DNA of 18,721 nt. It comes from an uncultured archaeon (GTDB taxonomy: Archaea; Aenigmatarchaeota; Aenigmatarchaeia; CG10238-14; SCSR01). This document shows, piece by piece, positions 1-18,721 of this stretch. The notes beneath the pieces are model-generated. The model did no database searches. It saw nothing but the letters and a program-made list of their open reading frames with translations, and was not told where the DNA came from. Each line of letters opens with the position of its first letter. Positions within the stretch are counted from its first letter, which is position 1. The stretch spans positions 1 through 18,721 of the forward strand of contig CAZRMN010000016.1 in the NCBI GenBank assembly GCA_964601215.1. The letters run 5' to 3'. The position numbers and the translations under genes are program-made.

Positions 1-89
1 TTTTTCAAAACCTTTTCTTTCAAAAAGAAATCTTCTTGGAAAAACATATCATAACTAAAAAATTTAATTTAAAATTCCATAAGAGTATT

Positions 90-1210: not shown

Positions 1211-1268
1211 ACTATTAATTTGGACTTTAAAAGAAAATTTATTAGTCCAAAAATTAAATTTAAAATTA

Positions 1269-2435: not shown

Positions 2436-2436
2436 T

Positions 2437-3162: not shown

Positions 3163-3185
3163 AAATAATATTTAGAATTAGAAGG

Positions 3186-4298: not shown

Positions 4299-4330
4299 AA
4301 TTTTCTTCTTTCCTTTTTTATTTTCTTAAG
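4299..4330. terminator. T-rich tract between convergent TRAM and DUF72 genes (putative bidirectional oligo-T terminator)
   Basis: The tract ttttcttctttccttttttattttctt lies immediately after the TRAM stop. Archaeal termination uses oligo-T runs. The reverse strand is also T-rich just beyond the DUF72 stop. Confidence 0.35.
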
Positions 4331-5058
4331 AGTTTTAAAAAGTTTAAAGCATCTTCTAGCATAAAAATATTGTTAAAAAGAATGAAAACTTCTTTTACTT
4401 TTTTCAAGTTTTCAATTTTCTTTTTTAGCTTGATCAAATCCTTTTTTGTATACTTATACTTGTACATCTGCTTACCAGGAGGAGAGCCATGCAGCCTAAA
4501 ATAAGCAATTCGTTTAGAAGAAAACCATAAGGGTTTGGAAGCAAAAGGGTCTACGCAAGAAATCAAATCAAACTTTTTGCAAATATTCTTAAAACCTTCT
4601 TCACTCCATCTTCTAAGCTCTAAAGCTATAGAAACTTTATCCCTTTTAATTTTCGAGAAAAACTTTTCAGCATTTCTTATGTTTTCCTCATTTTCCTTAA
4701 AACTTGCTGGAAGTTGAATTAAACAAACTCTAGCTTTAAGTATCTTACAAATTTCTAAAGTTTTTTCCCAAAACTCAAAAACTTCTCGAGTAGGTTTTAG
4801 AAACCCAACCTTTCCCTTAAGTTTTTCTAAATCCTTTATTCCACTCCTTCTCCAAGTTGGACTCGAGGTTGGATGAGAAATTCCTTGAAAGGCCTTAACA
4901 CAAAACTCAAAATTTTCTGGAGCTTGCTCACGCCATTTTTGAACAGTTTTTAATTGAGGCAGCCTGTAAAAAGTACTTTGAATTTCAACTAAAGAAAACT
5001 TTTGGAAGTATTTCTTCATTCCTCCAGGAAAGCCACAACAACCAACACGAATTTCCAT
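4318..5058 (-). CDS. DUF72 (UPF0759) family protein
   Basis: The tool's start at 5106 is a TTG. The first ATG is at 5058 and gives MEIRVGCCGFPG..., which matches the DUF72 N-terminal signature (MxIxxGxxGW-like). The rest of the protein is consistent with DUF72 length and composition. Confidence 0.75.
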   Translation of the reverse strand: MEIRVGCCGFPGGMKKYFQKFSLVEIQSTFYRLPQLKTVQKWREQAPENFEFCVKAFQGISHPTSSPTWRRSGIKDLEKLKGKVGFLKPTREVFEFWEKTLEICKILKARVCLIQLPASFKENEENIRNAEKFFSKIKRDKVSIALELRRWSEEGFKNICKKFDLISCVDPFASKPLWFSSKRIAYFRLHGSPPGKQMYKYKYTKKDLIKLKKKIENLKKVKEVFILFNNIFMLEDALNFLKLLRK

Positions 5059-5080
5059 ATTTCTCACAAGTTTTATTTTT

Positions 5081-5560
5081 TTAAACAAGTAAATGAATAT
5101 TTCCAATTCTTACTCTTTCTAATCCTTCTTCCTTAGCTATTTTTAAACAACTCTCTGCAAATTTCCTTGTTGTTAAGGGTAAATCCTTCATTTCAAAACA
5201 AGGATAAAAAGCAAGCAAAGAATAAGGTATACTCGAGTCCAAGCTTGCTATAAACCTACTTATTTCCCTTACCTCTTCCTCGCTCACATAACCAGGAATT
5301 AGGAGTGTGCTTGCTATTAGAAAAGGAACTTCCCTTCTTTTTTTATGCAATTTTACCAATTTTTCAAAATTCTCGTAGCTTTTCTCGTTTGAAACTCCTG
5401 TTAAAGCTTTGTTCAAACGCGAACCTTTAGGAAACTTTAAATCAAACTTAATACAACCACCAGTTTTAAAAGAATTAGTTGATATAGATGAATTAATTCC
5501 AATAGCAGTGGAAAAAGAAATAGGGACTTTAAAATTCCCAAAAATAAAAAAGCTAAGGCT
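5081..5560 (-). pseudogene. 3' remnant (C-terminal ~55%) of a PflA-like radical-SAM activating enzyme gene
   Basis: Hand-translating the frame upstream of the tool's TTG at 5416 shows it stays open to a TAA at 5561-5563, with no ATG. The segment GINSSISTNSF...FDLKFPKG...ALTGVSN...LLIPGY...YSLLAFYPCFEM aligns with the C-terminal half of the E. coli PflA pattern (GIHTCLDTNGF...LDLKQMND...LVGVSN...VVPGW...ELLPYHELG). The CxxxCxxC-bearing N-terminal half is absent. The remnant abuts the 3' end of the HPF-like gene. Confidence 0.55.
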
Positions 5561-5864
5561 TTAAACTCCTTTTAGGTTTCATCTTTTCAAATTTTTTGCT
5601 TATCATTTTTTCCAGTTTTTCTAAAAGTAAAGATAAGACAGAAGGAATATCCCATCCACTGGCTTTAGCAGTGAACAAAACATCTGAAGCTATAAGTTTT
5701 GCATGCATAGAGTATTTTTTTCTTCCTTCTGGACTATAAGTTTTCACATCCAACTTAAAACTTGAAATTTTCCACCTTTCTCCAAATTTTTCTAGGAATT
5801 TTTGGATTTCCTCTTGAATTTCAAGTTTTTCGGGTAAATGAGCATGAGAAATTTCTATTTGCAT
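5553..5864 (-). CDS. HPF/RaiA-like (Ribosomal_S30AE family) small protein
   Basis: The protein is 103 aa. MQIEISHAHLPEKLEIQEEIQKFLEKF ... DVLFTAKASGWDIPSVLSLLLEKLEKMISKKFEK parallels E. coli YfiA/HPF ([27 protein letters not shown] ... [29 protein letters not shown]). The ATG at 5862-5864 directly abuts the TGA of the upstream gene (TGAATG). Confidence 0.5.
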   Translation of the reverse strand: MQIEISHAHLPEKLEIQEEIQKFLEKFGERWKISSFKLDVKTYSPEGRKKYSMHAKLIASDVLFTAKASGWDIPSVLSLLLEKLEKMISKKFEKMKPKRSLKP

Positions 5865-6806
5865 TCAACCACTTTTTGCTATTAATGCACGCTCTTTAAC
5901 GAGCTTATTTTTCCATTTTTCTTTTAATCTTTCCCATTCATCCTCTTTCTTTGCTTTTTCTTTAATTTTTATTTCCTTTTGGCCAATTTTTTCCAATCTT
6001 TTATTTATCTCCTTCTTTAAATTTTCAACATATTCTTTTTCAACAAACTTGTTCATCTTTAGGCTTATTTCATCCAACATTTTAACTATATCCGTAGTCA
6101 ATTCATCTATTTTATTTATTTGCTCTTTCTGTCTTTCAATTTCATTCAATTTTTCACTCAATTCAGAAAAAATTAGTTCAACTTTAGCAGCTATTTTTTC
6201 AGTGTAAGCTTTTGCTTCTTCTATTTTTGAAATTTTCATTCCAATTTTTTCAGAAGTTTTCAATAAATTTTCTATACTTTTAACTTTTTCCATAATATTT
6301 AAGAACTCTTTAACTTCCCTTCTCAATTCATGAATCATTTCTTCAAGTTTTTCTATGTTTGCTTTAATTTCTTCTATTTCAGAATCTCTTTTTAAGAACT
6401 GTTTTTTAATTTTTTCTGGTTGTAGCTCAGAAACAGTTTCAAGAACCATTTCCATGTTTTTTTCAACTTTACTAAGGAACTTTTCTTTTTCAAGAATCAT
6501 AGACCTTAATTCTCCAATATTTTCAGATAAGTGACTTATTCTTTCATCAATTCCCTTTTTAAAATCTTCCAACATTTCTAATTTTCCATCAATCTTTTCA
6601 ATCCTAAGAAGAAGGTTTGGAAGGCTCATCTCCTTTGCCTCTCTTGTTGAAAAACTGGTAGGTTCGATTTCATCTTCTACCTCTCTTTCAGGAATTTCTT
6701 CAATCACTCCATACTTTTCTTTTAATTCTTTCTCTCTTTTTTTAATTTCTTCTTCTTTAATCGGTTCAATTAGCCTTTCCGTAAGTTCTATCTCATTTTT
6801 TGCCAT
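5865..6806 (-). CDS. K/E-rich coiled-coil protein (hypothetical)
   Basis: Almost the whole protein is heptad-like E/K/I/L repeats. Two ATGs are possible, at 6821 and 6806. The 6806 ATG is preceded by GGTGAAGGT (SD-like), so I prefer it. The gene overlaps the 3' end of the giant gene by 14 bp (29 bp with the other ATG), which suggests translational coupling. Confidence 0.6.
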   Translation of the reverse strand: MAKNEIELTERLIEPIKEEEIKKREKELKEKYGVIEEIPEREVEDEIEPTSFSTREAKEMSLPNLLLRIEKIDGKLEMLEDFKKGIDERISHLSENIGELRSMILEKEKFLSKVEKNMEMVLETVSELQPEKIKKQFLKRDSEIEEIKANIEKLEEMIHELRREVKEFLNIMEKVKSIENLLKTSEKIGMKISKIEEAKAYTEKIAAKVELIFSELSEKLNEIERQKEQINKIDELTTDIVKMLDEISLKMNKFVEKEYVENLKKEINKRLEKIGQKEIKIKEKAKKEDEWERLKEKWKNKLVKERALIAKSG

Positions 6807-9800
6807 ACTTACCTTCACCATACTTTGTTATCCAAAAATCAACGATTTTTTTCTTTAGTGAAGTTATATATATTTCAGCCATCCTAAACCTCCCTTGTTT
6901 TAATTTATCTTTCGCTAATTTTAATTCTGTTTTTAAATCAAATACATCTTTCCCTTCTCTTTCAAGCTTTTCTATTTCCATTTCTATTTCTTCGATGGCT
7001 TTACTAAACTCTCTATAAGTCTTAAGCTCCTTTTCAGGTATTTTATGAGGCATGTGTAATGGAGGTCTGAAAGAAACAAACCAAGGTATTCCATCATTAT
7101 ACTTTGGATTTTGCATCATCCCTACACCTACTTCTTCTCTTGCAACTCTTTTTGCATACTCTAGCCCATATTTCTTCTCAACTCTCACTAAATCTCCAAG
7201 GCCTTTTGTATGCATTTGAATTTCAGTTAATACATTTCCTTTTATTGCTTCCTTAAAGTCACTCAAAACTTGAGAGATCATTATTAGCCCAATCCCCCAT
7301 TTTCTGAATTCTCTGCAAGCCTTTTCTAAGACTATGTAACCTCCTTTTCCTCCGTATTTTTCTAATAAACGATGAACTTCATCAAAAACTATTACAAGCT
7401 TTAAACTACTCGACTCTTCCCAACCTTGTGCAAAAATTGTATTTATTATATTTGTAACCGCTTCATCATATTCTCCTGGTTTAAGCTTGTTTAAAGTGAA
7501 AATAGTAATTTCTCCTGGGTTCATGTACTTTTTGAAATCAATTTCAACTTTTGGAGTAGTAACTTCGTATATCATTCCTTTGAATGGTCTAGTATCATCC
7601 TTAGAAAGTCCAAACTTTTTATAGTATTTCAAAACTTTAGGGTCTCTACATGGCTTTACAAATCCTGTCCATTGAGCAGTTGGGTCAAAAACTATTACTG
7701 GTATTTTTCTATCTAACAATTCTTCTACAAATATGCTTCCAGTTACAGATTTTCCTGAACCAGTAGCACCAGCAATCAATACATGAGTTGTTAAATCATC
7801 CATTTTAAACGTTGCTTTCACGTTAGTTTCTGCAATTTTACCAAGCCATATTTTTCCTTTTGGAAGTTTTCTCATGTTTACTGGGAAAATGTACCTGGCT
7901 TTTGCTGCTTTCCATTTCAAATACCTCTTTCTTCCATACCATACAGAAAATGCGGAAATAACTGCTAAGCTTAAAACAGAAATCATTTGAATTCTTTGAG
8001 GAGTCCAGAATGGTTGAACTATTTCAAACAAATCCGTAGAACTTTTTTTCTTTCCATCATAAGTTGCTTCGACAACAAATAAATAAGAACCTAGTGAAAC
8101 GTTTGAAGGAATTAGTATCTCTTTTATGTACGATTCATAAGAAGATTCCATGGGTTTAATCTCACTACTCGAATAAATTACCTTTTCCGTTTCGGATTCT
8201 TTAATTAAATAAGTTATGTTAGCATCGTATCTTTTCTTTACTCCTAGGTTATAGAGCATAATTCTAAATCTTGCTATTTTTTCTGGGTTGATTTGTTTTG
8301 TTAATGCTTCAACCATTATGTCCAGTTCTATTAAACCTTTGAGTGAAACAGTTAAAGTTACTGGTAGAGTTTGTGTTTTTCCACTACTTCTTACTATTAT
8401 TTCACCAGTATAAGCTCCTGGTTCTATAGTCGGAGGAGCAAAAGCGTTTATTATTATCATACCCTCTTTTCCGCCTTGAATATTAATCGAATTCTTTTCA
8501 AGTTTAATTAGTTCTACTATAGAACCACTCAAAGAAATCGAAAAGTTAAGGTTTTTGTTCGCTTCATTTGAAATCCATAAAGCGAAATTTTTACTCTCAT
8601 TAACATTTATTTGTGCATCGGTTAAATTTGTCCTTAAGCTAAACTTGATTTCTTCTTCAGCTGGTGGAGTAGTAGGCAAACCACCTCCTGGTCCAGACGG
8701 TTGGGTTGTAGTTCCTCCGCTTGGCTGTCCACAATCCTCAGGACAGTTTAACTCAGATTCCCCAATACCACACTTTCCATTTCCACAAATTTCAATTTCA
8801 GCAGCTGCATAAACAGAAGTTGTTTTCTGGGTAGTAGACGCTAAATGTTTAGAAAAGTCTACTGTAGTATTAACTTCGCTCCAACCAGAAATACAGGATG
8901 GATATGTCCAATTAGAACACTTATAGATTTTTATACCAGGCTCATACCATATTTTTCCTTCCTGAAAATCCTCGGTATAATTAAAGGTTATAGTTAAATT
9001 TGAAAAGACAGCATTTGTTTTAATTTCAACAGCAGAAATCTTATATCTCTCAGGATTTGGCAAATCAATTATTGCTGTAGGTATTATTGACAAGTTTATT
9101 GGATTTGTCACATTTGAATTTGGATCACCAAACTGGAGTTCTGCAGTAGCTGTTGTATTAAAGTCAGATAGTTTAATGGAACTAGTTCCTATTTTTGCTA
9201 GGAAGTCATATGCTCTTTTATGCAAAGTAAAATTGTAAAAACCAGAATCATTCAAAAATGAATGAATTATGTAGTTTCTATTCGGTCTGTAAAGAGTGAA
9301 ATCTATTGGAAAGCTAGCATTCAAATACATTTGTATTGGTTCATAAACTTCAAACCAATTCACTGTTTGATTTAACCAACCAGAAGTATCGTTCGCGTAT
9401 AGTACATAATCATAATCTCCTTTTTTTGTCATATTTTCTAGAATAACTTTCCATGTTGTCCTAAGTGTGTCTGAAGTTAAATTCTGCAAATAATAAACAT
9501 AAGAAGAAGAATTTGGATAAGTTATATTGACCCAAACTTTATCAACCCCATACCAATCTGTTACATTTGCCTCTATTGTTACATTACCTCCTAAAGTTAC
9601 AGAGTTAGCATGTAAATAAGTTATAAAAGGAGGTGTTGTATCATATTCTCTAATTATTATTTCGACAGAACTTTCGTTCAAAGAAGTGTTGTAATGTCTG
9701 TAAGTACTTATGTCTGCATGGGTTATGTTACATTTTATAGTATGCAAACCTTCTGGTACTGTTGTATTGTCGCTTATGTTCCAAGTATAGCTTACGTATC

Positions 9801-12800
9801 CTATAGATTTTAAGCTAGTATTTGTTTCACCTTCATACAAAAGTATTTCATTATTATTGTACTTATCCCAGATTTTTACTGGATATTGGTCTATTCCTGA
9901 GGTTAGATTTGCATCCTCTACATAGCATACTATAGTAAGAGTTCTTTGATTTTCTGTTCTATTCACTTTTTGGTTATTGAGCGGGTAAGTTACATTAACT
10001 CTAGACCAACCGTATATCATTACTGAAACATTCTTTTCTGCTAGCTCATAAAATTCACCCTTTGCTTCAGCTTTTATTCTTAGTACTCCAGGAGCGCAAT
10101 ATCCAACAGTATAAGTTGTATTATCTCCATTTCTACTCATGCTACAAGTTGTCCATCCTTCATCAGTCGTGCTATTTCCTATCCAAGTCACATTATAAGT
10201 ATAGGATGGCAAACCACAGGAATCCTTGAGAGTAGAGTTTAATTGGATTGTCTCGCCAATATAATAAATTGAGCCTTCAACGGGTGAAATTATAGTTAAA
10301 TTCAAATAATCTTTTAAGGTTGTATTAATTGTACTGTTAATTATATTCAAATAATAGTATGGATTAACATTTCCAGATAGAGTCACATTAATTAGGTAAT
10401 AACCCAAGGCATCTGAACAATTAGTTTCCCAAGTTAAATTACAATACCCACTACTATTCGTTTGAGTCTTATTCTTTAAATTCCTATTTATATACCAGGT
10501 ACAATTGTAACCTTCAATAGGAACTGTTAACCCAAATTCATCTTGGATTCTTGCAGTAATGTTTGAAATTCCTCTGGTTAAGTTTTGAGTAGTAGTAAGG
10601 TTGATGTTAAGCTTTCCATAAATTTTTACGCTAAAGTTTTCTGAAATATTCGTTTGGTAGTAAGGATCTTGGTAAGTTCCTGCTTTCCACCATCTTTGTC
10701 CAGGTTTGTATGAAGCGTTAGGAGAAAATGTGTAATTACAAAAACCGGTTTGATTACTTATTGCATCACTCCCCCAATCCCAATGAGTTTCATTTAGAGT
10801 TATCCAAAAAGTGCAACTGGCATTTGAAACAGCTTCATTAAAATCAGTATCGTTTATTTGAATCATAAATAAAACAGAATCTGTTCTGTTTACTTCTGTA
10901 TTATTTCCCAAAACATAAATTATAGATACATTGTGCTTTGTAACGTTTGGACCATACTGCACACTACTATTTTGCCAATCATGGTATTGAATGTTTTGTG
11001 AGAAATTAAAATCTGCAAATTCAAATTTGAACAAATTATTTCCAGTCCAGCTTTTATTCGTAGTAAAATTAAAAGTAACTATTTTATTGCTTGTAGCATT
11101 TTTCTCATCTATAAGTTGCCAAACGTTTAACCTTGTAATGTTTACCCATAGTTTAATTGTTATGTTGTTGTTTTCTGCATCACTAACATTTACACTTATG
11201 TTAAACTCGCTTCCCCAAATTCCCTGAGCTGGGGTAATATTAATGTCAGAAAGTGTTGGAAGATTGTTGCTCGAACCACTTGCTTCATACAATACAGAAG
11301 AAGAATGTGGTTGTTTCCATACGAATAAGTCTTCCACATTATTTCCATTCGTGTCTTGTTTGCAAACCCAAAATGTATCACTACCAATTTGAATTGGGTA
11401 AAAAGTTGGATTGTTTGAATTACAATCTGTTGAAGGAGTGGAGGGGGTAATATCATAAAAAGTTCCGTTGTTAAACCAGTCAACTTTAAGTTTTGGTTCT
11501 GCTATAACTATAGAATCGTTTATCGTAGTGTTTGCAATTATGTCATAAAAAATTTCAGGAGTATTGTTCCAGATTGAAATATTCTTTTTCCAGAAGCCCT
11601 CGCTTACTATTGGTTGGGATTCATTTATGATAATAGGGACTGCAGAGCTCATTGAATCGTCCCATAAAGTATCATAAAATAAAGGTCCAGAACTTGGGAT
11701 AATATGGTTAAGAGCTGTTATATTACAAACTTTTTTTCCATTTAATGTAGTTACAGGATAAGAAGTTCCATTAAAGTCACATTTTGTTGCTGTATCACTT
11801 ACCCTAATATAATTAATCCTTATGTCCACTGCAGGATTATTTTTATAAGTTATATTTTTAATCTGGTTTCCAACAGATTCATTTGCTCTTACATTTCTTA
11901 TTCTAGACCAAGCACTCTTAATTTCATAAGTTATTAAATTAGAGATGTTATACTCATAGGTTATGTTTATTGAAGTAATTCTTAAATCACCTCCATAATC
12001 TGAATGAAAAACTAAAGGAATATCACAATTTCCAGTGGAATCTGCTTGACAGCTTGTCAAATAATTTTGGAATGCAGAATTGTTTGAAACAGAAGAACTT
12101 GACCTGAATTTTCCTTGATATAACCACTCTAAGTTCCCATCCCCTCCTATATCTAAGCTTACGTTTGTTGGATAATATTCAAAATTTAGGATGAAAAGGG
12201 TATAATTTGCAGGAATATTTGTTCCAGCCACAACTTCACTACCAGGGTCAGAAGTTAGATTTCCAGCTCCAACACCTCGAACATCGTTTTCTGTCAAATA
12301 ACTCCAAATAAGATAACCAGAAGAATTTAAAACATAAACTCTATCATCTAAACTACCAGCTATTATTTCGCCACCCACATCAGAAGATGTTATGTCGCTT
12401 ATTAAAACAGTGCCAACTTGTCCTTGAGTATCATAACTCCATAGAACATTACCATCGGAATCGAGCAAAAATACTGTTCCATTATTTCCAGCAACAGCAA
12501 TTTCTTCATACTCTTTACTCAAATCAGCATCTCCAACATCAACATCATTTATTTCCGTTCCTATGTTTGTATTCCACTTAAGGTTTCCAGAGGAGTTGAA
12601 AACATAAACTTTATAATCACTACCACCTGCTGCTATTTCATTTCCTTCATCAGATGAAAGGTTTCCTATAGCCACTCCTTTAAAAGAGCTACTCCCAGAA
12701 TAATTCCACAATTGTTGACCAGAGGAATCAAAAAGATAGACTCTATTATTGCTTGAAGCAACAGCAATTTCTTCATACTCTTTACTCAAATCAGCATCTC

Positions 12801-13383
12801 CAACATCAACATCATTTATCGTATTTCCTATACTCAAATTCCAGACTTGTTTTCCTGAGGAGTTTAATAAATATAAAAAACCACTAGAATCTCCACCCAC
12901 AACTTCCCTTCCTTCATGAGATGAAAGGTTTCCTATAGCTATACCATAAACATCTCCAGTTGTTGAAAAATTCCAAATACTGTTTCCTATACTATTAAGT
13001 AGTTGAATATAAGAAGGACCACTAGTTCCTATGGCAATTTCATCCCAATCGTTTGAAAAGATTACATTGCCTACACTTAAACTATAAATTTGCCGGTAAG
13101 TTGTTGAGGATACAGGCCTCATAACTCCAGTTAGGTTTATACTAGAGCTTAAAATCGTAGAATTCTTGGGAATTCTAATCCATCTTGTTTGATTTTCTAC
13201 ACCACTAAATATTATATCTTCAGTTTTGTTCGTGTTGTTTAAAGAATCTTGAGTAAAGTTAAAAACTGGGTTATCTAACTCTAAAAGAAAGGTTAATTGG
13301 GAAGAAGAAGAGAGCGCAAAACTATAGATAAAAAAAGCTAAAAAAAATGAGAAAATTACTAAAATTTTAAATTTCTTTCGCAT
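6793..13383 (-). CDS. giant (2196 aa) surface protein: signal peptide, beta-propeller repeats, multiple Ig-like domains, Cys/PT stalk, single TM, cytoplasmic FtsK/HerA-superfamily ATPase
   Basis: ATG at 13383. The N-terminus is a signal peptide (MRKKFKILVIFSFFLAFFIYSFALS). The extracellular region carries repeated ~45-aa blades (..AIGNLSSxEG.E...GG.D...Y..NSSG...WN / IG..INDVDVGDADLSKEYEEIAVA..N..V.L.DS.G..LW.Y). These are followed by ~1300 aa of beta-rich, N-x-S/T-dense sequence. Then comes CGNGKCGIGESELNCPEDCGQPSGGTTTQPSGPGGGLPTTPP, two more beta domains and a TM helix (ISVLSLAVISAFSVWY, ~7940-8000). The C-terminal ~380 aa has Walker A (HVLIAGATGSGKSV, 7747-7770), FDPT, Walker B (LVIVFDEVH, ~7369-7395) and RKWGIGLIMISQ. 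These match FtsK/HerA (DUF87)-type ATPases. The protein ends with a coiled-coil tail. Confidence 0.85.
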   Translation of the reverse strand: MRKKFKILVIFSFFLAFFIYSFALSSSSQLTFLLELDNPVFNFTQDSLNNTNKTEDIIFSGVENQTRWIRIPKNSTILSSSINLTGVMRPVSSTTYRQIYSLSVGNVIFSNDWDEIAIGTSGPSYIQLLNSIGNSIWNFSTTGDVYGIAIGNLSSHEGREVVGGDSSGFLYLLNSSGKQVWNLSIGNTINDVDVGDADLSKEYEEIAVASSNNRVYLFDSSGQQLWNYSGSSSFKGVAIGNLSSDEGNEIAAGGSDYKVYVFNSSGNLKWNTNIGTEINDVDVGDADLSKEYEEIAVAGNNGTVFLLDSDGNVLWSYDTQGQVGTVLISDITSSDVGGEIIAGSLDDRVYVLNSSGYLIWSYLTENDVRGVGAGNLTSDPGSEVVAGTNIPANYTLFILNFEYYPTNVSLDIGGDGNLEWLYQGKFRSSSSVSNNSAFQNYLTSCQADSTGNCDIPLVFHSDYGGDLRITSINITYEYNISNLITYEIKSAWSRIRNVRANESVGNQIKNITYKNNPAVDIRINYIRVSDTATKCDFNGTSYPVTTLNGKKVCNITALNHIIPSSGPLFYDTLWDDSMSSAVPIIINESQPIVSEGFWKKNISIWNNTPEIFYDIIANTTINDSIVIAEPKLKVDWFNNGTFYDITPSTPSTDCNSNNPTFYPIQIGSDTFWVCKQDTNGNNVEDLFVWKQPHSSSVLYEASGSSNNLPTLSDINITPAQGIWGSEFNISVNVSDAENNNITIKLWVNITRLNVWQLIDEKNATSNKIVTFNFTTNKSWTGNNLFKFEFADFNFSQNIQYHDWQNSSVQYGPNVTKHNVSIIYVLGNNTEVNRTDSVLFMIQINDTDFNEAVSNASCTFWITLNETHWDWGSDAISNQTGFCNYTFSPNASYKPGQRWWKAGTYQDPYYQTNISENFSVKIYGKLNINLTTTQNLTRGISNITARIQDEFGLTVPIEGYNCTWYINRNLKNKTQTNSSGYCNLTWETNCSDALGYYLINVTLSGNVNPYYYLNIINSTINTTLKDYLNLTIISPVEGSIYYIGETIQLNSTLKDSCGLPSYTYNVTWIGNSTTDEGWTTCSMSRNGDNTTYTVGYCAPGVLRIKAEAKGEFYELAEKNVSVMIYGWSRVNVTYPLNNQKVNRTENQRTLTIVCYVEDANLTSGIDQYPVKIWDKYNNNEILLYEGETNTSLKSIGYVSYTWNISDNTTVPEGLHTIKCNITHADISTYRHYNTSLNESSVEIIIREYDTTPPFITYLHANSVTLGGNVTIEANVTDWYGVDKVWVNITYPNSSSYVYYLQNLTSDTLRTTWKVILENMTKKGDYDYVLYANDTSGWLNQTVNWFEVYEPIQMYLNASFPIDFTLYRPNRNYIIHSFLNDSGFYNFTLHKRAYDFLAKIGTSSIKLSDFNTTATAELQFGDPNSNVTNPINLSIIPTAIIDLPNPERYKISAVEIKTNAVFSNLTITFNYTEDFQEGKIWYEPGIKIYKCSNWTYPSCISGWSEVNTTVDFSKHLASTTQKTTSVYAAAEIEICGNGKCGIGESELNCPEDCGQPSGGTTTQPSGPGGGLPTTPPAEEEIKFSLRTNLTDAQINVNESKNFALWISNEANKNLNFSISLSGSIVELIKLEKNSINIQGGKEGMIIINAFAPPTIEPGAYTGEIIVRSSGKTQTLPVTLTVSLKGLIELDIMVEALTKQINPEKIARFRIMLYNLGVKKRYDANITYLIKESETEKVIYSSSEIKPMESSYESYIKEILIPSNVSLGSYLFVVEATYDGKKKSSTDLFEIVQPFWTPQRIQMISVLSLAVISAFSVWYGRKRYLKWKAAKARYIFPVNMRKLPKGKIWLGKIAETNVKATFKMDDLTTHVLIAGATGSGKSVTGSIFVEELLDRKIPVIVFDPTAQWTGFVKPCRDPKVLKYYKKFGLSKDDTRPFKGMIYEVTTPKVEIDFKKYMNPGEITIFTLNKLKPGEYDEAVTNIINTIFAQGWEESSSLKLVIVFDEVHRLLEKYGGKGGYIVLEKACREFRKWGIGLIMISQVLSDFKEAIKGNVLTEIQMHTKGLGDLVRVEKKYGLEYAKRVAREEVGVGMMQNPKYNDGIPWFVSFRPPLHMPHKIPEKELKTYREFSKAIEEIEMEIEKLEREGKDVFDLKTELKLAKDKLKQGRFRMAEIYITSLKKKIVDFWITKYGEGKYGKK
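6796..7935 (-). other. cytoplasmic FtsK/HerA-like P-loop ATPase domain of the giant protein
   Basis: I verified the Walker A GATGSGKS codons by hand at 7747-7770. The Walker B DEVH is at about 7369-7395. An RKWGIGLIMISQ motif, analogous to the HerA R-K-y-G-l-g-l-i-l-i-t-Q or FtsK ATQRP segment, follows. Confidence 0.7.
12491..12552. repeat. 62-bp exact direct repeat, copy 1 (intragenic, beta-propeller blade region)
   Basis: The string gcaacagcaatttcttcatactctttactcaaatcagcatctccaacatcaacatcatttat also occurs at 12758-12819. Both copies encode INDVDVGDADLSKEYEEIAVA on the minus strand. Confidence 0.85.
12758..12819. repeat. 62-bp exact direct repeat, copy 2
   Basis: It is identical to 12491-12552, and the flanks diverge immediately on both sides. 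Confidence 0.85.
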
Positions 13384-13416
13384 ACTATCTATAAATATTT
13401 TTTATTTTCAATTAAA

Positions 13417-15405
13417 TTATTCTGATTCTAAGATCTTTTTTAATCTTCTTTTTATTTCTTCAAAAGTTTCCTCAATTCTCTTTTCTTTTCTCTTCTTGTA
13501 TTCTTTGATCAAAACATATGAAATTACTGTAAGTATTATTGCAATAGCAACTAAAACTAAACCGAAAACTATTTTTGAATATTTTGATAACTGTTGAATT
13601 TTAACATAAGGTTCACAAAATCTTTCAAAATTTTTTTCTCTTGCATAATCTCTTAGAATTCTCAAGTGATAGTTTATTTCTTCTTCGAATGGAATGAACG
13701 AAAAAACTTCAATTCTTGTCGCTTCTAGTTGAATTAGTGCGTGTGCCCGATTAACAGTTTTTTCGTACAGGGAAATTGCATAAATGAAAAAGTCTATTGC
13801 CTTTTCATAATTATTATTTTCATATTCTTCCATTCCTATTTCTCTTACATGCTCTCCGTTTTCAAAAATTTTTTTAATTTCATTTATGTTTAAGCATTCC
13901 AAGAAAAATATTTTATTTGCCTCTTCTCTAATTTTTTCTAGTTCTGCTAGTACCAAATCAGCTGCAGATTTCCAATCTTTTCCGATTATTAAAGTTACAT
14001 TTTCTGTATTACTCTTTACGCCATCGAATGCAGTAACTTTCAAATAGTATATTTTTTCTTCAATTTCTTTCGGAATTTTTATAAGAGCGATAAAATTTTG
14101 CGTTTCGTTGGGCTTGATTTCAGTTCTTGAAGGAGTTATTGAAATCCAGTTAGAAGGTATACCTTCTACTACAACTTCTACTACTTCTGATTTTGTCCCC
14201 AAGTTTTCGACGCTTGCCACAAAACCTGTTTCGTTTCCAGGAATTGTTACAAGTATGATGGGGGAAACGTTAAGGATAAGTTTTTCAACTTGCACTGGTG
14301 GTAGGGGTACATATGCACCTGAAGGAGGTGCAACCAAACATTCTTTTACTCGAAAAATATCTGTCGATGAAATTTGAATTTCTTTATACTCAAGAGTTGC
14401 GACAAAAGTATAATAACCAGGGGATAAATCTGAAGGAACGTGTAAGCTAGGTGTTCTTTGCATGGTAGTGTCTATTGCTATAGTTTCATTTTTTTTATCA
14501 ATGTATTCATTCAAATGGTTAGTTATCATATAAGTCATGTTGATGTCAGTAATTCCAGATGGAGAAAATTTTGTTATAGTAACAATAGCATAAACGCTAT
14601 CTCCTTGGCAAACTTCCTTTTTTTCAGATGGAATAGAAACACTTAAGTCGAATATACCACTTGCATTAACATAAATTTTAACTGTAATCGTTTTTTGTTG
14701 GTCGCCAGCTTTCACACTTATATAACCAGTATAATTACCAGTTTTAGCGTCTCTTGGAACTTTTATGCTTACTGTTACACTTTTTGCTTCACTTGTTTCA
14801 GGAAGGTAAACAGTTGAATTTGATAAGCTTAACCAATCGCCTGGTTCACCAGAAGATTTGTTTAAACTTGCATAAGTTCCGTAGCAAGGATATAACAACC
14901 AAAGGTATATAGTTTCATTCGAAGAATCCCCTGGTTTCATAGTTTTTTCTATTTTTAAAGGAGAAACAACTAAAGTTCCAATACCTTTTTTTACCCTAAA
15001 TTCTGTCTCTGCATACTTGAATTCTTTATTATAGCTAAAATTACTCTTTACAGTATAAATTCCTTCTGGACTAGAGCTTTCAACTGTGTAGTTTGAAAAG
15101 AAATTTTTTGTTTCACCTCCATTAACAGAAGTTTCCCATGTTTCATTCTTTATTTCATTTTCATAAGAGTCAATAATTTTTATAGTTAGGTTACCCGAAG
15201 CCCCATAATTTCCCCTGTTTTCTAGAGTTGTGGTTATGTTTACAATTTCAGGTTCACAGTAGGAAGATTTGTCAGTTGCAACTGAAAGGAATATATTCTC
15301 TTTTAAGGCTACTGTGCTATTCATAAAAGTTTCGATCCCAGAAGAAATTGGAACTAAAAAAAAGATTAAAAATAATAAGAAAAAATATTTTTTCTTAAAA
15401 CTCAT
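13417..15405 (-). CDS. type-I membrane surface protein with tandem CARDB/NEW3-like beta-sandwich domains
   Basis: ATG at 15405. It has a signal peptide (MSFKKKYFFLLFLIFFLVPISSG). Segments such as SSYCEPEIVNITTTLENRGNYGASGNLTIKI and EVVVEGIPSNWISITPSRTEIKPNETQNFIALIKIP are CARDB-like. Many N-x-S/T sequons are present. It has a helical membrane-proximal region, a TM helix (IVFGLVLVAIAIILTVISYVLI) and a short K/R/E tail. The stop lies 33 bp upstream of the giant gene's ATG. Confidence 0.75.
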   Translation of the reverse strand: MSFKKKYFFLLFLIFFLVPISSGIETFMNSTVALKENIFLSVATDKSSYCEPEIVNITTTLENRGNYGASGNLTIKIIDSYENEIKNETWETSVNGGETKNFFSNYTVESSSPEGIYTVKSNFSYNKEFKYAETEFRVKKGIGTLVVSPLKIEKTMKPGDSSNETIYLWLLYPCYGTYASLNKSSGEPGDWLSLSNSTVYLPETSEAKSVTVSIKVPRDAKTGNYTGYISVKAGDQQKTITVKIYVNASGIFDLSVSIPSEKKEVCQGDSVYAIVTITKFSPSGITDINMTYMITNHLNEYIDKKNETIAIDTTMQRTPSLHVPSDLSPGYYTFVATLEYKEIQISSTDIFRVKECLVAPPSGAYVPLPPVQVEKLILNVSPIILVTIPGNETGFVASVENLGTKSEVVEVVVEGIPSNWISITPSRTEIKPNETQNFIALIKIPKEIEEKIYYLKVTAFDGVKSNTENVTLIIGKDWKSAADLVLAELEKIREEANKIFFLECLNINEIKKIFENGEHVREIGMEEYENNNYEKAIDFFIYAISLYEKTVNRAHALIQLEATRIEVFSFIPFEEEINYHLRILRDYAREKNFERFCEPYVKIQQLSKYSKIVFGLVLVAIAIILTVISYVLIKEYKKRKEKRIEETFEEIKRRLKKILESE

Positions 15406-15453
15406 AATTCAATTTAAAAGTTTGGAAAAAATAAATTTAAGTAAAGTGGAAGC
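15406..15453. promoter_or_regulatory. 48-bp AT-rich divergent intergenic region (putative back-to-back promoters)
   Basis: The sequence aattcaatttaaaagtttggaaaaaataaatttaagtaaagtggaagc lies between the minus-strand 662-aa gene and the plus-strand A1 gene. It has TATA-like runs on both strands. GTGGA precedes the A1 ATG by 4 nt. Confidence 0.35.
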
Positions 15454-16056
15454 ATGAAAAAGGCGATATTTTTAATCTTATTGTTTTCTTTTATTTTTCT
15501 TCAAACAGGAAAAAGTATAAGAGAAACTCCAACTTTGCCCATGAATCTTTCTGTAATAAGTTTTTATTCTATAGAAATAAGTGATAAGTTAGCTGAAGGA
15601 ATTCTATTTACCAATTTAACTGGTTCTGAACTAAACGTTCAATATCCTTTGCTCGCAGGTTCTTTTGATAACAATGCAACTTTTAATTACAATAAAACTA
15701 ATCAAAAAACAGAGTATTGGGTTTATGTTTCTGGTAATATGTTAGTAGATATTTGCCAAGGAGCGAAATATAATTTATGCTCTAACTTAACTTGTGTTGG
15801 TCCAGGAAATTATGAAATTTATATTAGCAACGTAACTTGGAACAGTTCAAAAATAAACGATGCACAAAATCCTTCTCTTTTAAACTCGATTCCAATGGTT
15901 CTAGGCTTTGATAATAACAATAAAATAACTCAAATCCAGCCAGGAGAATACGTTTACTTGAGGTACTGGCTAGACGTCCCTCCAAATTTTCCTCCTTATA
16001 ATTATAGTACGATTTATCAAGTTCAAGCAGTACCTTCTGGTGGTACATGTGTTTAA
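15454..16056 (+). CDS. secreted Cys-containing glycoprotein, family 'A' paralog 1
   Basis: It has an N-terminal signal peptide (MKKAIFLILLFSFIFLQTG). The motifs ETPTLPMN...ILFTNLTG..NVQYP..NNATFNYN..KTEYWVYV..DICQ..NLCSNLTCVGPGNYEIYISNVTW..YVYLRYWLDVPP are shared with the ORFs at 17360-18040 and 18272-window edge. Confidence 0.7.
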   Translation: MKKAIFLILLFSFIFLQTGKSIRETPTLPMNLSVISFYSIEISDKLAEGILFTNLTGSELNVQYPLLAGSFDNNATFNYNKTNQKTEYWVYVSGNMLVDICQGAKYNLCSNLTCVGPGNYEIYISNVTWNSSKINDAQNPSLLNSIPMVLGFDNNNKITQIQPGEYVYLRYWLDVPPNFPPYNYSTIYQVQAVPSGGTCV

Positions 16057-16639
16057 AAAATTAATTTGTATAGCATTAGTATTAGCTTTAATTAAGCCTA
16101 CTTATGCAACAAGAGGTCTAGGCATAGGACCTGCAAAAATGAACATTTCTGTTAGTCCAGGAGAAGAACACTTATTTTATCTAATTCTTTTTAATCCAGG
16201 TGACGCAGATGAAAACGTGAGTTTAAAAGCTTACTGTTTGAACTGTCTAAGAGATTATAAGATTTTTGGGTTTTATGTGGGTAAGGTAAACTATACAGAA
16301 GATTTCTTAAGATTTCCAAAAACAATAAAAGTTGAAAAAAATACTACTCATCTGGAAGGAAAATTTGTAGAAATTAACATAAAAGTCCCAAAATTTGTTA
16401 GATCTCAAATTATTCTTGGAAATAAAACTATTTCATCCTATATTCTGGCATCGAATTTAAAACAGCTTGACTTCAGAATTGTTGCTACTGCTGGCGAAAA
16501 AACAAAAATTTCTGTAGTAAGCGATTTAAAAGTAAAAATAAAGGAAGAAACGAATTATTTTCCAGTTTTTTTAATAATTTTCTTTCTAGTTTTAATTTTT
16601 TTGATAAAAAAAACTACTTTGATTTTTTCTTTCTTTTAA
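16049..16639 (+). CDS. signal-peptide / C-terminal TM-anchored protein, family 'B' paralog 1
   Basis: The tool's start is GTG 16040. GTG 16049 gives MFKKLICIALVLALIKPTYA|TRGLGIGP and is preceded by GGTGG 7 nt upstream. It overlaps the A1 stop by 8 bp. The core GIGPAKMNISVSPG...NPGDADENVSLKAYCLNC...GKV aligns with the paralog at 16614-17318. The C-terminus has a hydrophobic anchor. Confidence 0.65.
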   Translation: MFKKLICIALVLALIKPTYATRGLGIGPAKMNISVSPGEEHLFYLILFNPGDADENVSLKAYCLNCLRDYKIFGFYVGKVNYTEDFLRFPKTIKVEKNTTHLEGKFVEINIKVPKFVRSQIILGNKTISSYILASNLKQLDFRIVATAGEKTKISVVSDLKVKIKEETNYFPVFLIIFFLVLIFLIKKTTLIFSFF

Positions 16640-17318
16640 AAAATTTGTAAATTCTTCTGAAACCAATTTTCCAAAGAATGAAAAGAATTACACAAATTAT
16701 TATAAGAATGATTATTATTAAGCTCCCGAGAGGTATCCCTTTTATATGCATGTTCAAGTCAGCACCTACTGCTGGAGTTGCTCCCATCGCTCCAAAAGTA
16801 GACCAAACAGCTGAAATAGTTATTCCACCTTTTATTTCCTTTTCATCTATTAGTAAAGTGTAATAAGGAATGGAAAATTCACCAGTATAACTTGGATTAA
16901 TTCCTCTAACCAAAAAGTTTATTTCCTCTGGAGTGGAAATCACAAGTTCTTTTTTAACCCAAATACTTGGAGTAATGTGTACTGTTATTGGAATAGCAGC
17001 TTCTGGACCAGTATGGTTTGGTACATAAACTTCTTCTGGGTCAAAAGTGAAAAATTGTCTATAGTCTTCCCTTACTTTACCTATACGCCAGCCAAAAAAA
17101 TAAGCATCACTTTCGCAATTCTCGCATTCAAAAGTAACTTTTGCTTTAATGTCATAATCTCCTGGGTTGTAAACTATTAGAGTAGCAGAGTAAGGATTTC
17201 CTATGCTTGTTCTAATGTTAAGCCTAGTAGGACCCATTCCAATTCCTACACCTGCAAAAACAGAAGGAATAGAAATAAGAAAAAAGAATACAATAAAAAC
17301 AAATAACGCTCTTTTCAT
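16614..17318 (-). CDS. signal-peptide / C-terminal TM-anchored protein, family 'B' paralog 2
   Basis: ATG at 17318. MKRALFVFIVFFFLISIPSVFA|GVGIGMGPTRLNIRTSIG...NPGDYDIKAKVTFECENC...GKV is followed by a C-terminal TM helix and a basic tail (RRIYKFFKRKKKSK). Its 3' end overlaps paralog 1's 3' end by 26 bp in convergent orientation. Confidence 0.7.
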   Translation of the reverse strand: MKRALFVFIVFFFLISIPSVFAGVGIGMGPTRLNIRTSIGNPYSATLIVYNPGDYDIKAKVTFECENCESDAYFFGWRIGKVREDYRQFFTFDPEEVYVPNHTGPEAAIPITVHITPSIWVKKELVISTPEEINFLVRGINPSYTGEFSIPYYTLLIDEKEIKGGITISAVWSTFGAMGATPAVGADLNMHIKGIPLGSLIIIILIIICVILFILWKIGFRRIYKFFKRKKKSK

Positions 17319-17359
17319 GTTTTCACTAAATTACTGTATTTTTTTAATATTTAAAAGTT

Positions 17360-18040
17360 TTAACAGTCGCATTCGCCGCAATCCAATGAAGCTTCTACTA
17401 TTTTGAATCTGTAAGTTGTATTGTATGTACCTGAAGTTATTGTATCTGGATAAGGATTAAGCCAATACCTTAAGTAAATATAAGCATCCTTGTATTCGGG
17501 CATGCTTGCATTTACTACTTGATAAACGTCTGTTCCTGGAGGTGGAAAACTGTATTGAGGCGTGTCGTCCACACCAGTTGCTGAAGTAGCGTTTGCCCAT
17601 CTTACACCCTCGCTATCTGGTTCGCTTGGAACATAAATGTACATATAATCTACATTTTTTTGGCAGTCTCCTCCCGAACATGTCAAGTTATTGCAAACAC
17701 AGTGACAAACTTTTGTCGGTGCTGTATTTGTATCAAAGGTATGTACCCAATACATCGTTCCATAGTTTGTATCATCTCCATAATTTTCTGTTGCATTGTT
17801 CCAATAATCCATTTGAGTTATTGGATATTGGATGTGCCTAGTTGTTGCGTTTGTGAAAAATATTCCTAAGGAAAGATTTCCTGAAAGTTCAAAGCCAATT
17901 ACTTGCTGAATGCTTGCATTCATTGGAACTGTCTGGGTTTCTGTTGCAAATATGTTTGGCATGCTTACTATTGCAACTATTACTAAAGCTGCTAAGAGAA
18001 CTATGAATGCTATTGAGGTTATCCCTCTCCTCAATTCCAT
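17360..18040 (-). CDS. secreted Cys-rich glycoprotein, family 'A' paralog 2
   Basis: The tool's start at 18064 is a TTG. The first ATG at 18040 gives MELRRGITSIAFIVLLAALVIVAIVSMPNIFA|TETQTVPMN.... The mature region aligns with A1 (ET.T.PMN.S...GI.FTN.T...QYP...NNAT.NY...YW...C.C.NLTC.GG...YIYLRYWL). The C-terminus has a CGECDC motif. A tttatatt box lies ~25-31 nt upstream of the ATG, so the transcript is possibly leaderless. Confidence 0.7.
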   Translation of the reverse strand: MELRRGITSIAFIVLLAALVIVAIVSMPNIFATETQTVPMNASIQQVIGFELSGNLSLGIFFTNATTRHIQYPITQMDYWNNATENYGDDTNYGTMYWVHTFDTNTAPTKVCHCVCNNLTCSGGDCQKNVDYMYIYVPSEPDSEGVRWANATSATGVDDTPQYSFPPPGTDVYQVVNASMPEYKDAYIYLRYWLNPYPDTITSGTYNTTYRFKIVEASLDCGECDC

Positions 18041-18071
18041 ATATAAAATTTGAATTCTGTCCAATATAAAT

Positions 18072-18263
18072 TTATTTTTTCAAATAGCAAAGAGAAACTA
18101 CCCCAATTCTCCTTTGTTCTACTTTATTGCTTTTAACTAAAGCAAAAATGTATTTGGAAACTGTGTTTCTGTGCAGGTTTGTCTTTCGAGAAATGTCCAT
18201 TATAGTTAAACCTTCTGGATGCTTAGAAAGTACTCTAATTATCTTTTCTTCTGTTTCATTCAT
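18072..18263 (-). CDS. small winged-helix (wHTH) DNA-binding protein, putative local transcription regulator
   Basis: The tool's start at 18278 is a TTG that overlaps the upstream gene. The first ATG at 18263 is preceded by AGGA. The region IIRVLSKHPEGLTIMDISRKTNLHRNTVSKYIFALVKSNKV is a classic HTH plus wing. The protein is ~63 aa. Confidence 0.65.
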   Translation of the reverse strand: MNETEEKIIRVLSKHPEGLTIMDISRKTNLHRNTVSKYIFALVKSNKVEQRRIGVVSLCYLKK

Positions 18264-18271
18264 TTTATCCT

Positions 18272-18721
18272 TTAGCAAGGTTCTTCCTCTCCCACGGCTT
18301 TAAAGACTACAGTAGAGTTGTACTTTCCAGAAGGTACTCCAGGAGGTGCGTAGAACCAATACCTTATGTAAATGGTTTGATCGACTGGTAAACTGTATGC
18401 AACTCTGTTACCAGTGGAATAACTTAAAGTCAAATTATTAACAGTAGTAAAAGCTGGATAGGTCAAGTTGTTGTAAGTTGAGTTGCTCCAGGTTACATTA
18501 CCAATATAAATTTCATAATTTCCGCAAGTTTCTCCTGGTGTGCAAATCATGTTTGCATTGGCTTTCTGGCATATATCTATAGGAGCAGTTCCATTGTTAG
18601 TAATCCAATATTCTGTTTTATTGTCGGAAGCATTGTAATTCCACGTAGCGTTATTATACCAACCTATTCTTACATTATACTGAGTATTAGTTTGAGCTCC
18701 TGTTTCATTCGTGAAGAATAT
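18272..18721 (-). CDS. secreted Cys-containing glycoprotein, family 'A' paralog 3 (partial; 5' end off-window)
   Basis: Hand translation shows the frame is open from the window edge. The segment IFFTNETGAQTNTQYNVRIGWYNNATWNYNASDNKTEYWITNNG..DICQKANANMICTPGETCGNYEIYIGNVTW...TIYIRYWFYAPPGVPSG..EEEPC* aligns along its whole length with A1 and A2. The ATG at 18550 chosen by the tool is internal. Confidence 0.65.
   Translation of the reverse strand: MFFTNETGAQTNTQYNVRIGWYNNATWNYNASDNKTEYWITNNGTAPIDICQKANANMICTPGETCGNYEIYIGNVTWSNSTYNNLTYPAFTTVNNLTLSYSTGNRVAYSLPVDQTIYIRYWFYAPPGVPSGKYNSTVVFKAVGEEEPC

Follow-up and report, generated by a model that had tools for sequence, protein, structure and literature searches.

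Does the right-hand part of contig CAZRMN010000016.1, from an uncultured archaeon of the Aenigmatarchaeota (DPANN), encode one surface machine or several, and what might its genes do at the cell surface? The contig (18,721 bp, G+C ~31%) was analysed over its full length and is referred to as the window below. It encodes ordinary proteins at 36-5416 (HD, zinc ribbon, SPFH, AIM24, TRAM, DUF72) and, from 5865 to the contig edge, sequon-rich secreted or membrane-anchored proteins together with their partners. The original prediction, made from the DNA letters alone, took everything from 5553 to the edge for a single distinct surface system of uncharacterised type. We favour, with moderate confidence, a host-contact and adhesion island made up of two modules, which can occur apart but remain neighbours in this clade. 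Module 1 (5865-13383) consists of a giant membrane-spanning ATPase and a coiled-coil protein, which by sequence form a compact member of the published SPEARE, or giant VirB4-HerA-like ATPase, proteins of DPANN archaea. Module 2 (13417-18721) is built around two protein families, here named A and B, which judging from profile searches are an undescribed, unannotated and widespread pair, and within which B proteins would hold A-domain proteins. DPANN archaea live attached to host cells, and the locus bears on how this attachment and the accompanying exchange of material occur.

The open reading frames, topologies and sequon densities listed in the original prediction from 5553 on were all recovered, with the qualification that just one sequon occurs in the protein B2 (0.4 per 100 aa). 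Density of N-x-S/T sequons is 2.5-6.7 per 100 aa in g4 (a multi-domain stalk protein of module 2), A1-3 and B1, as compared to 0-0.5 in the seven left-hand proteins, and both the coiled-coil protein and a protein resembling the ribosome factor HPF have none at all. C-terminal transmembrane (TM) segments are present in g4, B1 and B2. Scans of the 19 window proteins against Pfam and NCBIfam detected no PilB/FlaI, PilC/FlaJ, prepilin peptidase or type IV secretion system (T4SS) component in the window, and archaellum and Ced components were likewise absent from it. The statement that the region matches no archaellum, type IV pilus or conjugation gene set is thereby upheld for the window.

A compact SPEARE-type ATPase and its coiled-coil partner

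Module 1 comprises the following features, in which Ig stands for immunoglobulin:

6793-13383, minus strand: giant protein, 2196 aa, with signal peptide, beta-propeller, Ig-like stalk, one TM segment, HerA/VirB4-like ATPase and coiled-coil tail
12184-13101, minus strand: distal beta-propeller of the giant, residues ~95-400 (Pfam Beta-prop_CGLA 61 bits, PQQ_2 53 bits), with internal ~89-aa repeats
7999-12183, minus strand: Ig-like ectodomain stalk of the giant, residues ~401-1795, sequon-dense, with weak Big_7 and DUF4625 matches
7933-7986, minus strand: TM segment of the giant, residues ~1800-1817 (MISVLSLAVISAFSVWYG then RKRYLKWKAAKAR)
7069-7881, minus strand: cytoplasmic P-loop ATPase of the FtsK-HerA superfamily in the giant, residues ~1835-2105 (DUF87, HerA_C)
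6796-7068, minus strand: coiled-coil tail of the giant, after the ATPase domain
5865-6821, minus strand: cytoplasmic coiled-coil protein, 318 aa, overlapping the 3' end of the giant gene by 29 nt

All 102 sequons of the giant fall within residues 42-1761 and none in its last 435 residues; its N-terminus is a hydrophobic segment, and a basic stretch follows the TM-like segment. The ATPase domain has a Walker A (GATGSGKS) and a Walker B motif (VIVFDE) and scores above the Pfam cut-offs for DUF87 (45.9 bits, cut-off 23.2) and HerA_C (27 bits, cut-off 22). The solved HerA structure 4d2i matches it at E 5e-7 with both Walker motifs aligned. These matches bear out the FtsK/HerA-like motor that had been predicted for the giant.

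Homologues of the last 497 residues numbered 478 (43-77% identity), most of them 550-700 aa long and mainly from Aenigmatarchaeota, Woesearchaeota, Nanohaloarchaeota and Nanoarchaeia, including the cultivated Nanohalococcus and Nanohalovita. Among them are AQV86_02330 of the SG9 SPEARE locus (48% identity) and the Nanohalococcus protein P0183 (47%). In tblastn comparisons, the ATPase domain was 52-54% identical to both copies in a Nanohalococcus locus (L007), i.e., the C-terminus of the 9409-aa SVXNc_0300 and a 623-aa ATPase downstream, and 60% identical to the corresponding pair in a Woesearchaeota locus (L008). The stand-alone ATPase directly follows SVXNc_0300 in Nanohalococcus occultus and follows a 15,808-aa protein in the Woesearchaeota metagenome-assembled genome (MAG), and both of these neighbouring giants end in their own copy of the same ATPase domain. 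Over its membrane-proximal ~200 residues, the ectodomain of the window giant can be aligned with that of the short-form L007 and L008 ATPases.

SPEARE proteins were described as mostly extracytoplasmic, with a TM segment near the C-terminus, a conserved cytoplasmic domain and at least one laminin-G domain, and homologues in Aenigmarchaeota had already been noted (Hamm et al. 2019, PMC6642349). They were later re-read as giant Ig/beta-propeller proteins (PQQ-like) that carry a VirB4/TraG-like ATPase and end in a coiled coil (Reva et al. 2023, PMC10266531). The window giant shares the signal peptide, the PQQ-like beta-propeller, the long Ig-like ectodomain, the single TM segment near the C-terminus, a cytoplasmic P-loop ATPase of 47-60% identity, the coiled-coil tail and a homologous coiled-coil gene downstream. 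The label 'uncharacterised type' has to be given up for these two genes, which belong with the published SPEARE proteins (PMC6642349, PMC10266531). Differences exist nevertheless. At 2196 aa the window giant is much shorter than the giant forms, which have ~3300-9400 aa; a 655-aa SG9 version is also listed in PMC6642349. It has no Laminin_G match in Pfam, and Laminin_G_3 sits instead in a neighbouring A-tagged giant of a related locus (L001). A second stand-alone ATPase gene of the SVXNc_0299 type, as reported for the two nanohaloarchaea of Reva et al. (PMC10266531) and seen here in L007 and in the Woesearchaeota locus L008, is missing downstream of the giant in the window and in L001-3, where the coiled-coil gene is found; such a second gene is, however, no stated definition of the SPEARE family. 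Finally, the window giant is flanked by the A/B module, whereas the halophile and Woesearchaeota loci lack A/B. The locus shows a compact form of the SPEARE-type adhesin-ATPase in thermophilic Aenigmatarchaeota.

The coiled-coil gene is homologous to the gene located right after the SPEARE-type ATPase in three lineages, with 54% identity in Aenigmatarchaeota (L001, E 6e-75), 32% in Nanohalococcus (L007, E 4e-29) and 35% in Woesearchaeota (L008, E 5e-34). Its retention after the ATPase in all three suggests that it encodes a core partner, and its overlap with the giant gene suggests that the two are probably translationally coupled. The product has no TM segment, no sequons and weak SMC/Rad50 coiled-coil matches, in line with the label it had received. 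This partner, conserved across three phyla, is not described as a separate gene in PMC6642349 or PMC10266531; Reva et al. mention a coiled coil at the C-terminal tip of the giant itself (PMC10266531).

Membership in a T4SS is not supported by the scans of the 19 window proteins, with TraC at 22.5 bits against a cut-off of 567, TraD at 23.5 against 366, TrwB_AAD_bind below cut-off and no other T4SS family. The best NCBIfam model for the cytoplasmic domain of the giant is CedD (49.3 bits, E 3e-13), a score so far under the cut-off of 600 that it indicates superfamily kinship only. CedB and CedD are membrane-bound HerA-clade ATPases of crenarchaeal DNA import, and CedD is needed in Sulfolobales (PMC11868833). 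The window giant resembles them as a TM-anchored HerA/VirB4-like ATPase, but the window has no CedA, CedA1 or CedA2 genes and the N-terminus of the giant is an ectodomain and not a VirB4-NTD-like domain. A defence-system or viral reading of the region was dropped, as the matches in PADLOC and PHROGs were all generic, to P-loop proteins of the HerA/terminase type and to coiled coils.

Several further observations concern the giant and its relatives. The coding region of the beta-propeller contains direct DNA repeats (12303-12975; 267-270 nt period, 72-75% identity) and stretches of its protein such as DVDVGDADLSKEYEEIAVA repeat exactly, which points to recent blade duplication. One homologue, P0142, is 75% identical to the C-terminal region of the giant, yet its Pfam domains are only those of a proteasome alpha-subunit, and a PAC2 proteasome-assembly gene (L007:13876-14640) lies three genes downstream of the Nanohalococcus ATPase; these may reflect a recurrent proteasome neighbourhood or a gene-call chimera. 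The small ectodomain of P0174, a 689-aa short-form SPEARE-type ATPase, matches WxLIP_PGBD (DUF916) at 26.5 bits (cut-off 27.3) and gives Cep192/PapD-like matches, and the membrane-proximal domain of such short forms may itself be B-like. For the window giant, hhalign found no relation between B and the membrane-proximal ectodomain (probability 3%).

The A and B protein families

Module 2 is encoded by the following genes:

13417-15405, minus strand: g4, 662 aa, secreted multi-Ig stalk with helical region and C-terminal TM anchor (MG2 33.6 bits, NPCBM_assoc 29.2 bits)
15454-16056, plus strand: A1, 200 aa, small secreted A-domain protein
16040-16639, plus strand: B1, 199 aa, with signal peptide, beta-sandwich and C-terminal TM anchor
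16614-17318, minus strand: B2, 234 aa, with signal peptide, PapD/WxLIP-like beta-sandwich, C-terminal TM anchor and basic tail
17360-18064, minus strand: A2, 234 aa from a TTG start (ATG 8 codons in), small secreted A-domain protein
18072-18278, minus strand: wHTH, 68 aa, small winged-helix DNA-binding protein (HTH_IclR 31.7 bits, HTH_24 30.2 bits)
18272->18721, minus strand: A3, third A-domain gene, its 5' end cut by the contig end; a near-identical full-length copy, P0003, has 221 aa

A1, A2 and A3 are true paralogues (34-40% identity), as are B1 and B2 (28% identity), and no relationship between A and B was seen (probability 6%). Neither family has a match in Pfam, NCBIfam, PHROG or among PDB sequences, and no A or B domain was found in the giant or in g4. 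All A and B homologues with a named source derive from MAGs of Candidatus Aenigmatarchaeota. An exhaustive profile search with the A alignment yielded 414 A-domain clusters at E <= 1e-3, 217 of these at E <= 1e-10, with taxonomy established for the Aenigmatarchaeota members only.

Among the best 150 A matches, 113 are small stand-alone proteins, 14 are ~290 aa long and 21 are large. The A domain occupies the extreme C-terminus in 18 of the 21 large proteins, where it is preceded by Laminin_G_3, beta-helix/NosD, DUF2341 or Big_7 domains. In L001/L003/L010, L011 and L016 the position of A3 is taken by the C-terminus of a giant of up to 4039 aa with beta-helix and Laminin_G domains. In small A proteins the domain core is preceded by a conserved N-terminal stretch (P-M-N-A-S-I...) in which hydrophobic residues alternate; large proteins that end in an A domain lack this extension. 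A2-type N-termini (..RRG/ITS.., ..SKG/VSS..) could be read as class III signals, but they also contain 'FAQ', a cleavage site of the Sec type. The ~290-aa relatives (P0236-P0302; L027:2271-3143) consist of a ~100-aa lysine-rich cytoplasmic N-terminus and a TM segment with an 'ITG(F/Y)A' motif followed by the A domain, and thus anchor their A domain themselves; L027 has one such gene in the midst of other A-like and B-like genes.

A B gene follows a small A gene on the same strand in both window pairs, with a 17-nt overlap between A1 and B1 and a 41-nt gap between A2 and B2, and both pairs are retained in all related loci. The association extends to four distant A-anchored loci, i.e., the second module of L004 (from the same metagenome as the window), L024, L026 and L027, in which A is only ~20-30% identical and a B-like gene adjoins the A genes in every case (4/4). 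These B-like genes were recognised by HMM or HHalign at E 1e-7 to 1e-12 and share a signal peptide, A-x-GVG(I/L), YNPxDxDV, a C-terminal TM segment and a basic tail. Multi-Ig proteins resembling g4, which ranks as a third constant component beside A and B, follow A/B in L022, L024 (E 3e-12) and L004. The window g4 itself has TM-like segments at residues 6-28 and 606-636, and an exact look-up of its 662 aa returned no record; 'CARDB-like', as it had been called, is approximately right, while Pfam gives MG2 and NPCBM_assoc.

An AlphaFold model of A1 from 48 homologues is a confident beta-sandwich (predicted local distance difference test, pLDDT, 93). Foldseek ranked TLP-1b first (E 9e-3, probability 0.99), followed by TLP-1a, the GH123-like hexosaminidase 8k2h, CanA, a thread subunit, TasA, CfaB, CsuA/B and FimA. 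The nearest structural neighbours of the modelled A domain would hence be subunits of donor-strand fibres, though the match is weak; the comparison with thread and TasA-type pilins that the original prediction had proposed was well chosen. B2 was modelled at pLDDT 90 and its structural matches are stronger than those of A; the predicted fold is a single PapD/WxLIP-like beta-sandwich that resembles the chaperones of chaperone-usher (CU) pili.

The wHTH gene, whose predicted identity is confirmed by the HTH_IclR and HTH_24 matches, has a start that overlaps the A3 stop and lies directly downstream of an A3-type gene or domain in all related loci, and it is likely a local regulator. A 46-nt stretch of A1 (15805-15850) is 85% identical to one of A3 (18478-18523, inverted orientation). 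It encodes GNYEIYI.NVTW.NS in proteins that are otherwise only ~40% identical, which could reflect a strongly constrained motif or local gene conversion.

Synteny of the two modules

A tblastn map over all fetched loci showed A3, wHTH, A2, B2, B1, A1, g4, the giant and the coiled-coil gene to be contiguous in every Aenigmatarchaeota locus that is long enough, i.e., in the window and 11 related loci (L001, L002 (=L010), L003, L011, L012, L016-L021) of 50-80% protein identity. The related genomes thus agree with the co-occurrence that had been named as a check, the HPF-like gene excepted. In the window, L015 and L016 the order is wHTH > [A2 B2 <B1 <A1 g4] > giant. In all other related loci the five-gene block [A2 B2 B1 A1 g4] is inverted (e.g., window 13417-18064 versus L001:7964-12566), and g4 lies next to A1 in all of them. 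No inverted repeats were found at the block boundaries, which argues for evolutionary rearrangement and not for evident phase variation. Flanking genes differ between the window and its relatives while the nine-gene set is constant, which speaks for the set being kept together.

Elsewhere the modules occur apart. SPEARE-type and coiled-coil genes in the Nanohaloarchaeota and Woesearchaeota loci have no homologue of A, B or g4 nearby (tblastn). Conversely, A/B genes are found without a recognisable SPEARE gene, within the stretches examined, in L022, L024, L026 and L027; L026 has a neighbouring giant with no DUF87 match on record. Our reading is consequently that two modules share a location, and perhaps also a use, in this clade. 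The single surface system of the original prediction stands as far as a dedicated cell-surface locus of co-occurring genes is concerned, but not as one indivisible unit, as its two modules are separable in other lineages.

A fused form of the wHTH gene was seen in L004 (L004:10217-17796), which shares 94% DNA identity with window 18071-18721 over A3 and wHTH (651 nt). The likeness stops at the TAA that ends the window wHTH, where L004 has AAA. The L004 wHTH frame consequently stays open and becomes part of a 2378-aa protein that has a TM segment and a beta-helix ectodomain and ends in an A domain; A-like, B-like and g4-like genes come next. This fusion is either a membrane-tethered regulator-adhesin, a strain-level cassette swap or an assembly error.

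Comparison of module 2 with known surface systems

Firmicutes have WxL/WxLIP clusters, for which it is predicted that the WxL domain takes up a strand from WxLIP (Hassan et al. 2023, PMC10599100; PDB 9i1y). Module 2 shares with them three components, namely a small protein that consists of the tag alone, a large adhesin that ends in the tag, and an Ig-fold protein held by a C-terminal TM helix. Sequence similarity is lacking, as none of 48 A members and none of 24 B members matched WxL (PF13731), PF06030 or DUF3324 even at E <= 10. In addition, B has one beta-sandwich and WxLIP two, and the window has the extra multi-Ig stalk g4 and the wHTH gene. The wall-binding role of WxL cannot apply here, as this archaeon lacks peptidoglycan.

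With CU pili (Fim, Pap, Csu, Saf, Caf) module 2 shares adhesins that combine an N-terminal lectin with a C-terminal subunit domain, and several paralogous small subunits. It differs in having no usher and no outer membrane, in a B that is single-domain and membrane-anchored, in 1:1 paired genes and in the lack of sequence homology, so that membership in the CU systems, with their two-domain soluble chaperone, outer-membrane usher and pilins joined by donor-strand exchange, is not supported. The design of A/B/g4 hence resembles strand-complementation systems of both kinds, CU pili and WxL/WxLIP, and is a member of neither. A third group of comparators are the donor-strand fibres, i.e., Saci_0406 threads (PMC9715654), Pyrobaculum bundling pili (7ueg), CanA cannulae and TLP-1, an environmental fibril built by donor-strand exchange (PMC11494351). 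Their Sec-secreted, glycosylated beta-sandwich subunits of ~170-200 aa resemble A. They have no known PapD-like partner, in contrast to A, which is always accompanied by B.

Proposed function and alternative explanations

In the model that we favour, module 1 would place an N-glycosylated beta-propeller and Ig-like stalk outside the cell, joined by one TM helix to an ATPase and coiled-coil tail inside. The giant ectodomain might contact another cell or a surface. As FtsK-HerA-VirB4 ATPases are hexameric, and by comparison with the DNA importers CedB/CedD, the giant ATPase probably oligomerises under the membrane and could power the movement of DNA or protein at the contact site, while the coiled-coil protein might bind the coiled-coil tail of the giant. 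Module 2 would serve as a surface-display or assembly module, in which B and g4 are predicted to be TM-anchored and each B would bind its cognate A domain by beta-strand complementation. A candidate for the donated strand is the invariant mature N-terminus of B (GVGIGMGP in B2) with its alternating pattern G-V-G-I-G-M-G-P. A-tagged proteins would thereby be held on the cell surface, or be assembled there into short heteromeric stalks, and the wHTH, coupled to the A3 gene, might act as the local regulator.

The contact between A and B is proposed from gene association, folds and analogy. The combination of an A-B pair, A as a C-terminal tag and a TM-anchored Ig partner parallels WxL/WxLIP clusters, and this analogy favours B holding A. 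Several points weigh against it. Ig folds of the PapD-like, ASH or CARDB type are common in archaeal surface proteins, so that the fold of B is no proof of a chaperone or receptor role, and weak Cep192 or WxLIP_PGBD matches are also given by g4 and by one short SPEARE-type ATPase ectodomain. Neither A and WxL nor B and DUF916/DUF3324 are homologous in sequence. In some relatives A follows an N-terminal TM anchor of the protein itself, or stands at the start of a large protein, and such forms would have no need of B as a tether. As to module 1, the two published hypotheses on SPEARE ATPases disagree, one proposing DNA uptake and degradation and the other effector secretion (PMC6642349, PMC10266531). 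The conserved adjacency of the modules could, moreover, still make them one functional unit in this clade.

An alternative, which we regard as possible though unlikely, is that A proteins are true pilins, which build a fibre resembling threads or fimbriae by donor-strand exchange. The large A-tagged lectin and beta-helix proteins would then be tip adhesins with a pilin domain that lacks the free N-terminal extension, B would be a membrane-tethered PapD-like chaperone or platform that may anchor the last subunit, and g4 would form a base or stalk, in all an usher-less archaeal counterpart of CU pili. The resemblance of B to CU chaperones agrees with this, and so does the N-terminal extension that is conserved in small A proteins and lost in the C-terminal A domains of large ones. 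Several paralogous small A proteins per locus would correspond to major and minor pilins, the order of N-terminal lectin and C-terminal A mirrors FimH and PapG, and no chaperone has been found for archaeal threads (PMC9715654), a gap that a B-type partner would fill. However, the structural scores are low, and the A monomer model (pLDDT 93) is complete and not evidently short of a strand, although models of this type often show self-complementation. Two cognate 1:1 A-B gene pairs are unlike one chaperone serving many subunits, and B is one domain with a TM anchor where CU chaperones are two soluble domains. The ~290-aa relatives hold A behind a non-cleavable-looking TM anchor and a ~100-aa cytoplasmic domain, and a nearly invariant sequon Asn falls within the putative donor strand. 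It is doubtful, too, whether A/B represent the first chaperone-assisted donor-strand-exchange fibre pathway of archaea, widespread (414 clusters) and genetically coupled to the SPEARE translocase in Aenigmatarchaeota. If they do, B would prime and anchor A subunits, the lectin/beta-helix giants ending in A would be tip adhesins, and the fibre would dock the symbiont to its host, upon which the giant ATPase would move material.

That the whole stretch from 5553 to the edge is one integrated novel appendage machine, with the HerA-like motor of the giant assembling or driving an A/B structure, appears improbable to us. Contiguity of nine genes in 11 related loci, despite other flanks and a block inversion, speaks for selection on linkage, but SPEARE and coiled-coil genes without A, B and g4 nearby in Nanohaloarchaeota and Woesearchaeota, and A/B without a SPEARE-type gene in L022, L024 and L027 (and beside the DUF87-less giant of L026), speak against a single machine. 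So do the lack of conservation of the HPF-like gene and the absence of A or B domains from the giant and g4. We give very little credence to a plain cluster of unrelated glycosylated surface or S-layer-associated proteins, in which A and B would have no specific recognition, adjacency to the giant would be inertia, and A, B and g4 would be mere Ig-fold wall components, e.g., a small canopy protein and membrane stalks like SlaA/SlaB. S-layer stalk proteins such as SlaB combine beta-sandwich domains, a helical region and a C-terminal TM segment, a layout that g4 resembles; Ig-like and PapD-like folds are generic, and the compared Aenigmatarchaeota loci are only moderately diverged (50-80% protein identity). 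Yet A-B pairing recurs in four far more distant loci with A only ~20-30% identical, A is a terminal tag on many unrelated adhesin architectures, and the overlap between the A1 stop and the B1 start suggests that both are made in stoichiometric amounts.

If B indeed holds or polymerises A by strand complementation, as our preferred two-module reading proposes for holding, the pair would offer a testable model for adhesin display by wall-less, S-layer-type archaea. A/B may also supply the missing assembly factor of archaeal donor-strand fibres. Both families merit profile models and names.

Neighbouring genes and sequence elements

Two further features lie beside or between the genes of the modules:

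15422-15439, plus strand: 18-nt A/T-rich element TTGGAAAAAATAAATTTA, 15 nt upstream of the A1 start codon
5553-5864, minus strand: HPF/YfiA-like gene, 103 aa, with a full-length, sub-threshold match to bacterial HPF/YfiA models

A 17/18 copy of the 18-nt element is located at 18067-18084 on the minus strand, directly upstream of the A2 open reading frame start; this was the only notable pair in the search for inverted repeats. A1 and A2 may share the element as a promoter component. By itself it lacks significance (at least two matches in 33 of 200 shuffles), and it is not conserved in more distant loci. Scans of the window for tRNAs and tandem repeats gave nothing relevant, and a scan for bacterial promoters and terminators carried no information for archaeal DNA.

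The HPF-like gene scores 23.0 bits against PF02482 (Ribosomal_S30AE; cut-off 23.7) and 21.4 against TIGR00741 (cut-off 40.9), and a PDB sequence search returned HPF at E 0.8. A full-length HPF/YfiA-like match is unusual for an archaeon. The borderline match agrees with the original prediction, but its proposed role as a partner does not hold, as the gene is not conserved beside the module. It does not resemble the 108-aa gene that Nanohalococcus (L007) has in this place and is absent after the coiled-coil gene in L001-3 and L010. It is probably a neighbour and not part of the system. A ParA gene occupies that position in L001-3 and L010, and a gene for a ParA/MinD-family ATPase, which the window lacks, is found at or near the module in three lineages (L001:20386-20588, L004:6930-7685, L024:2814-3620). 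This neighbourhood could be due to chance, or the ATPase could be a positioning factor.

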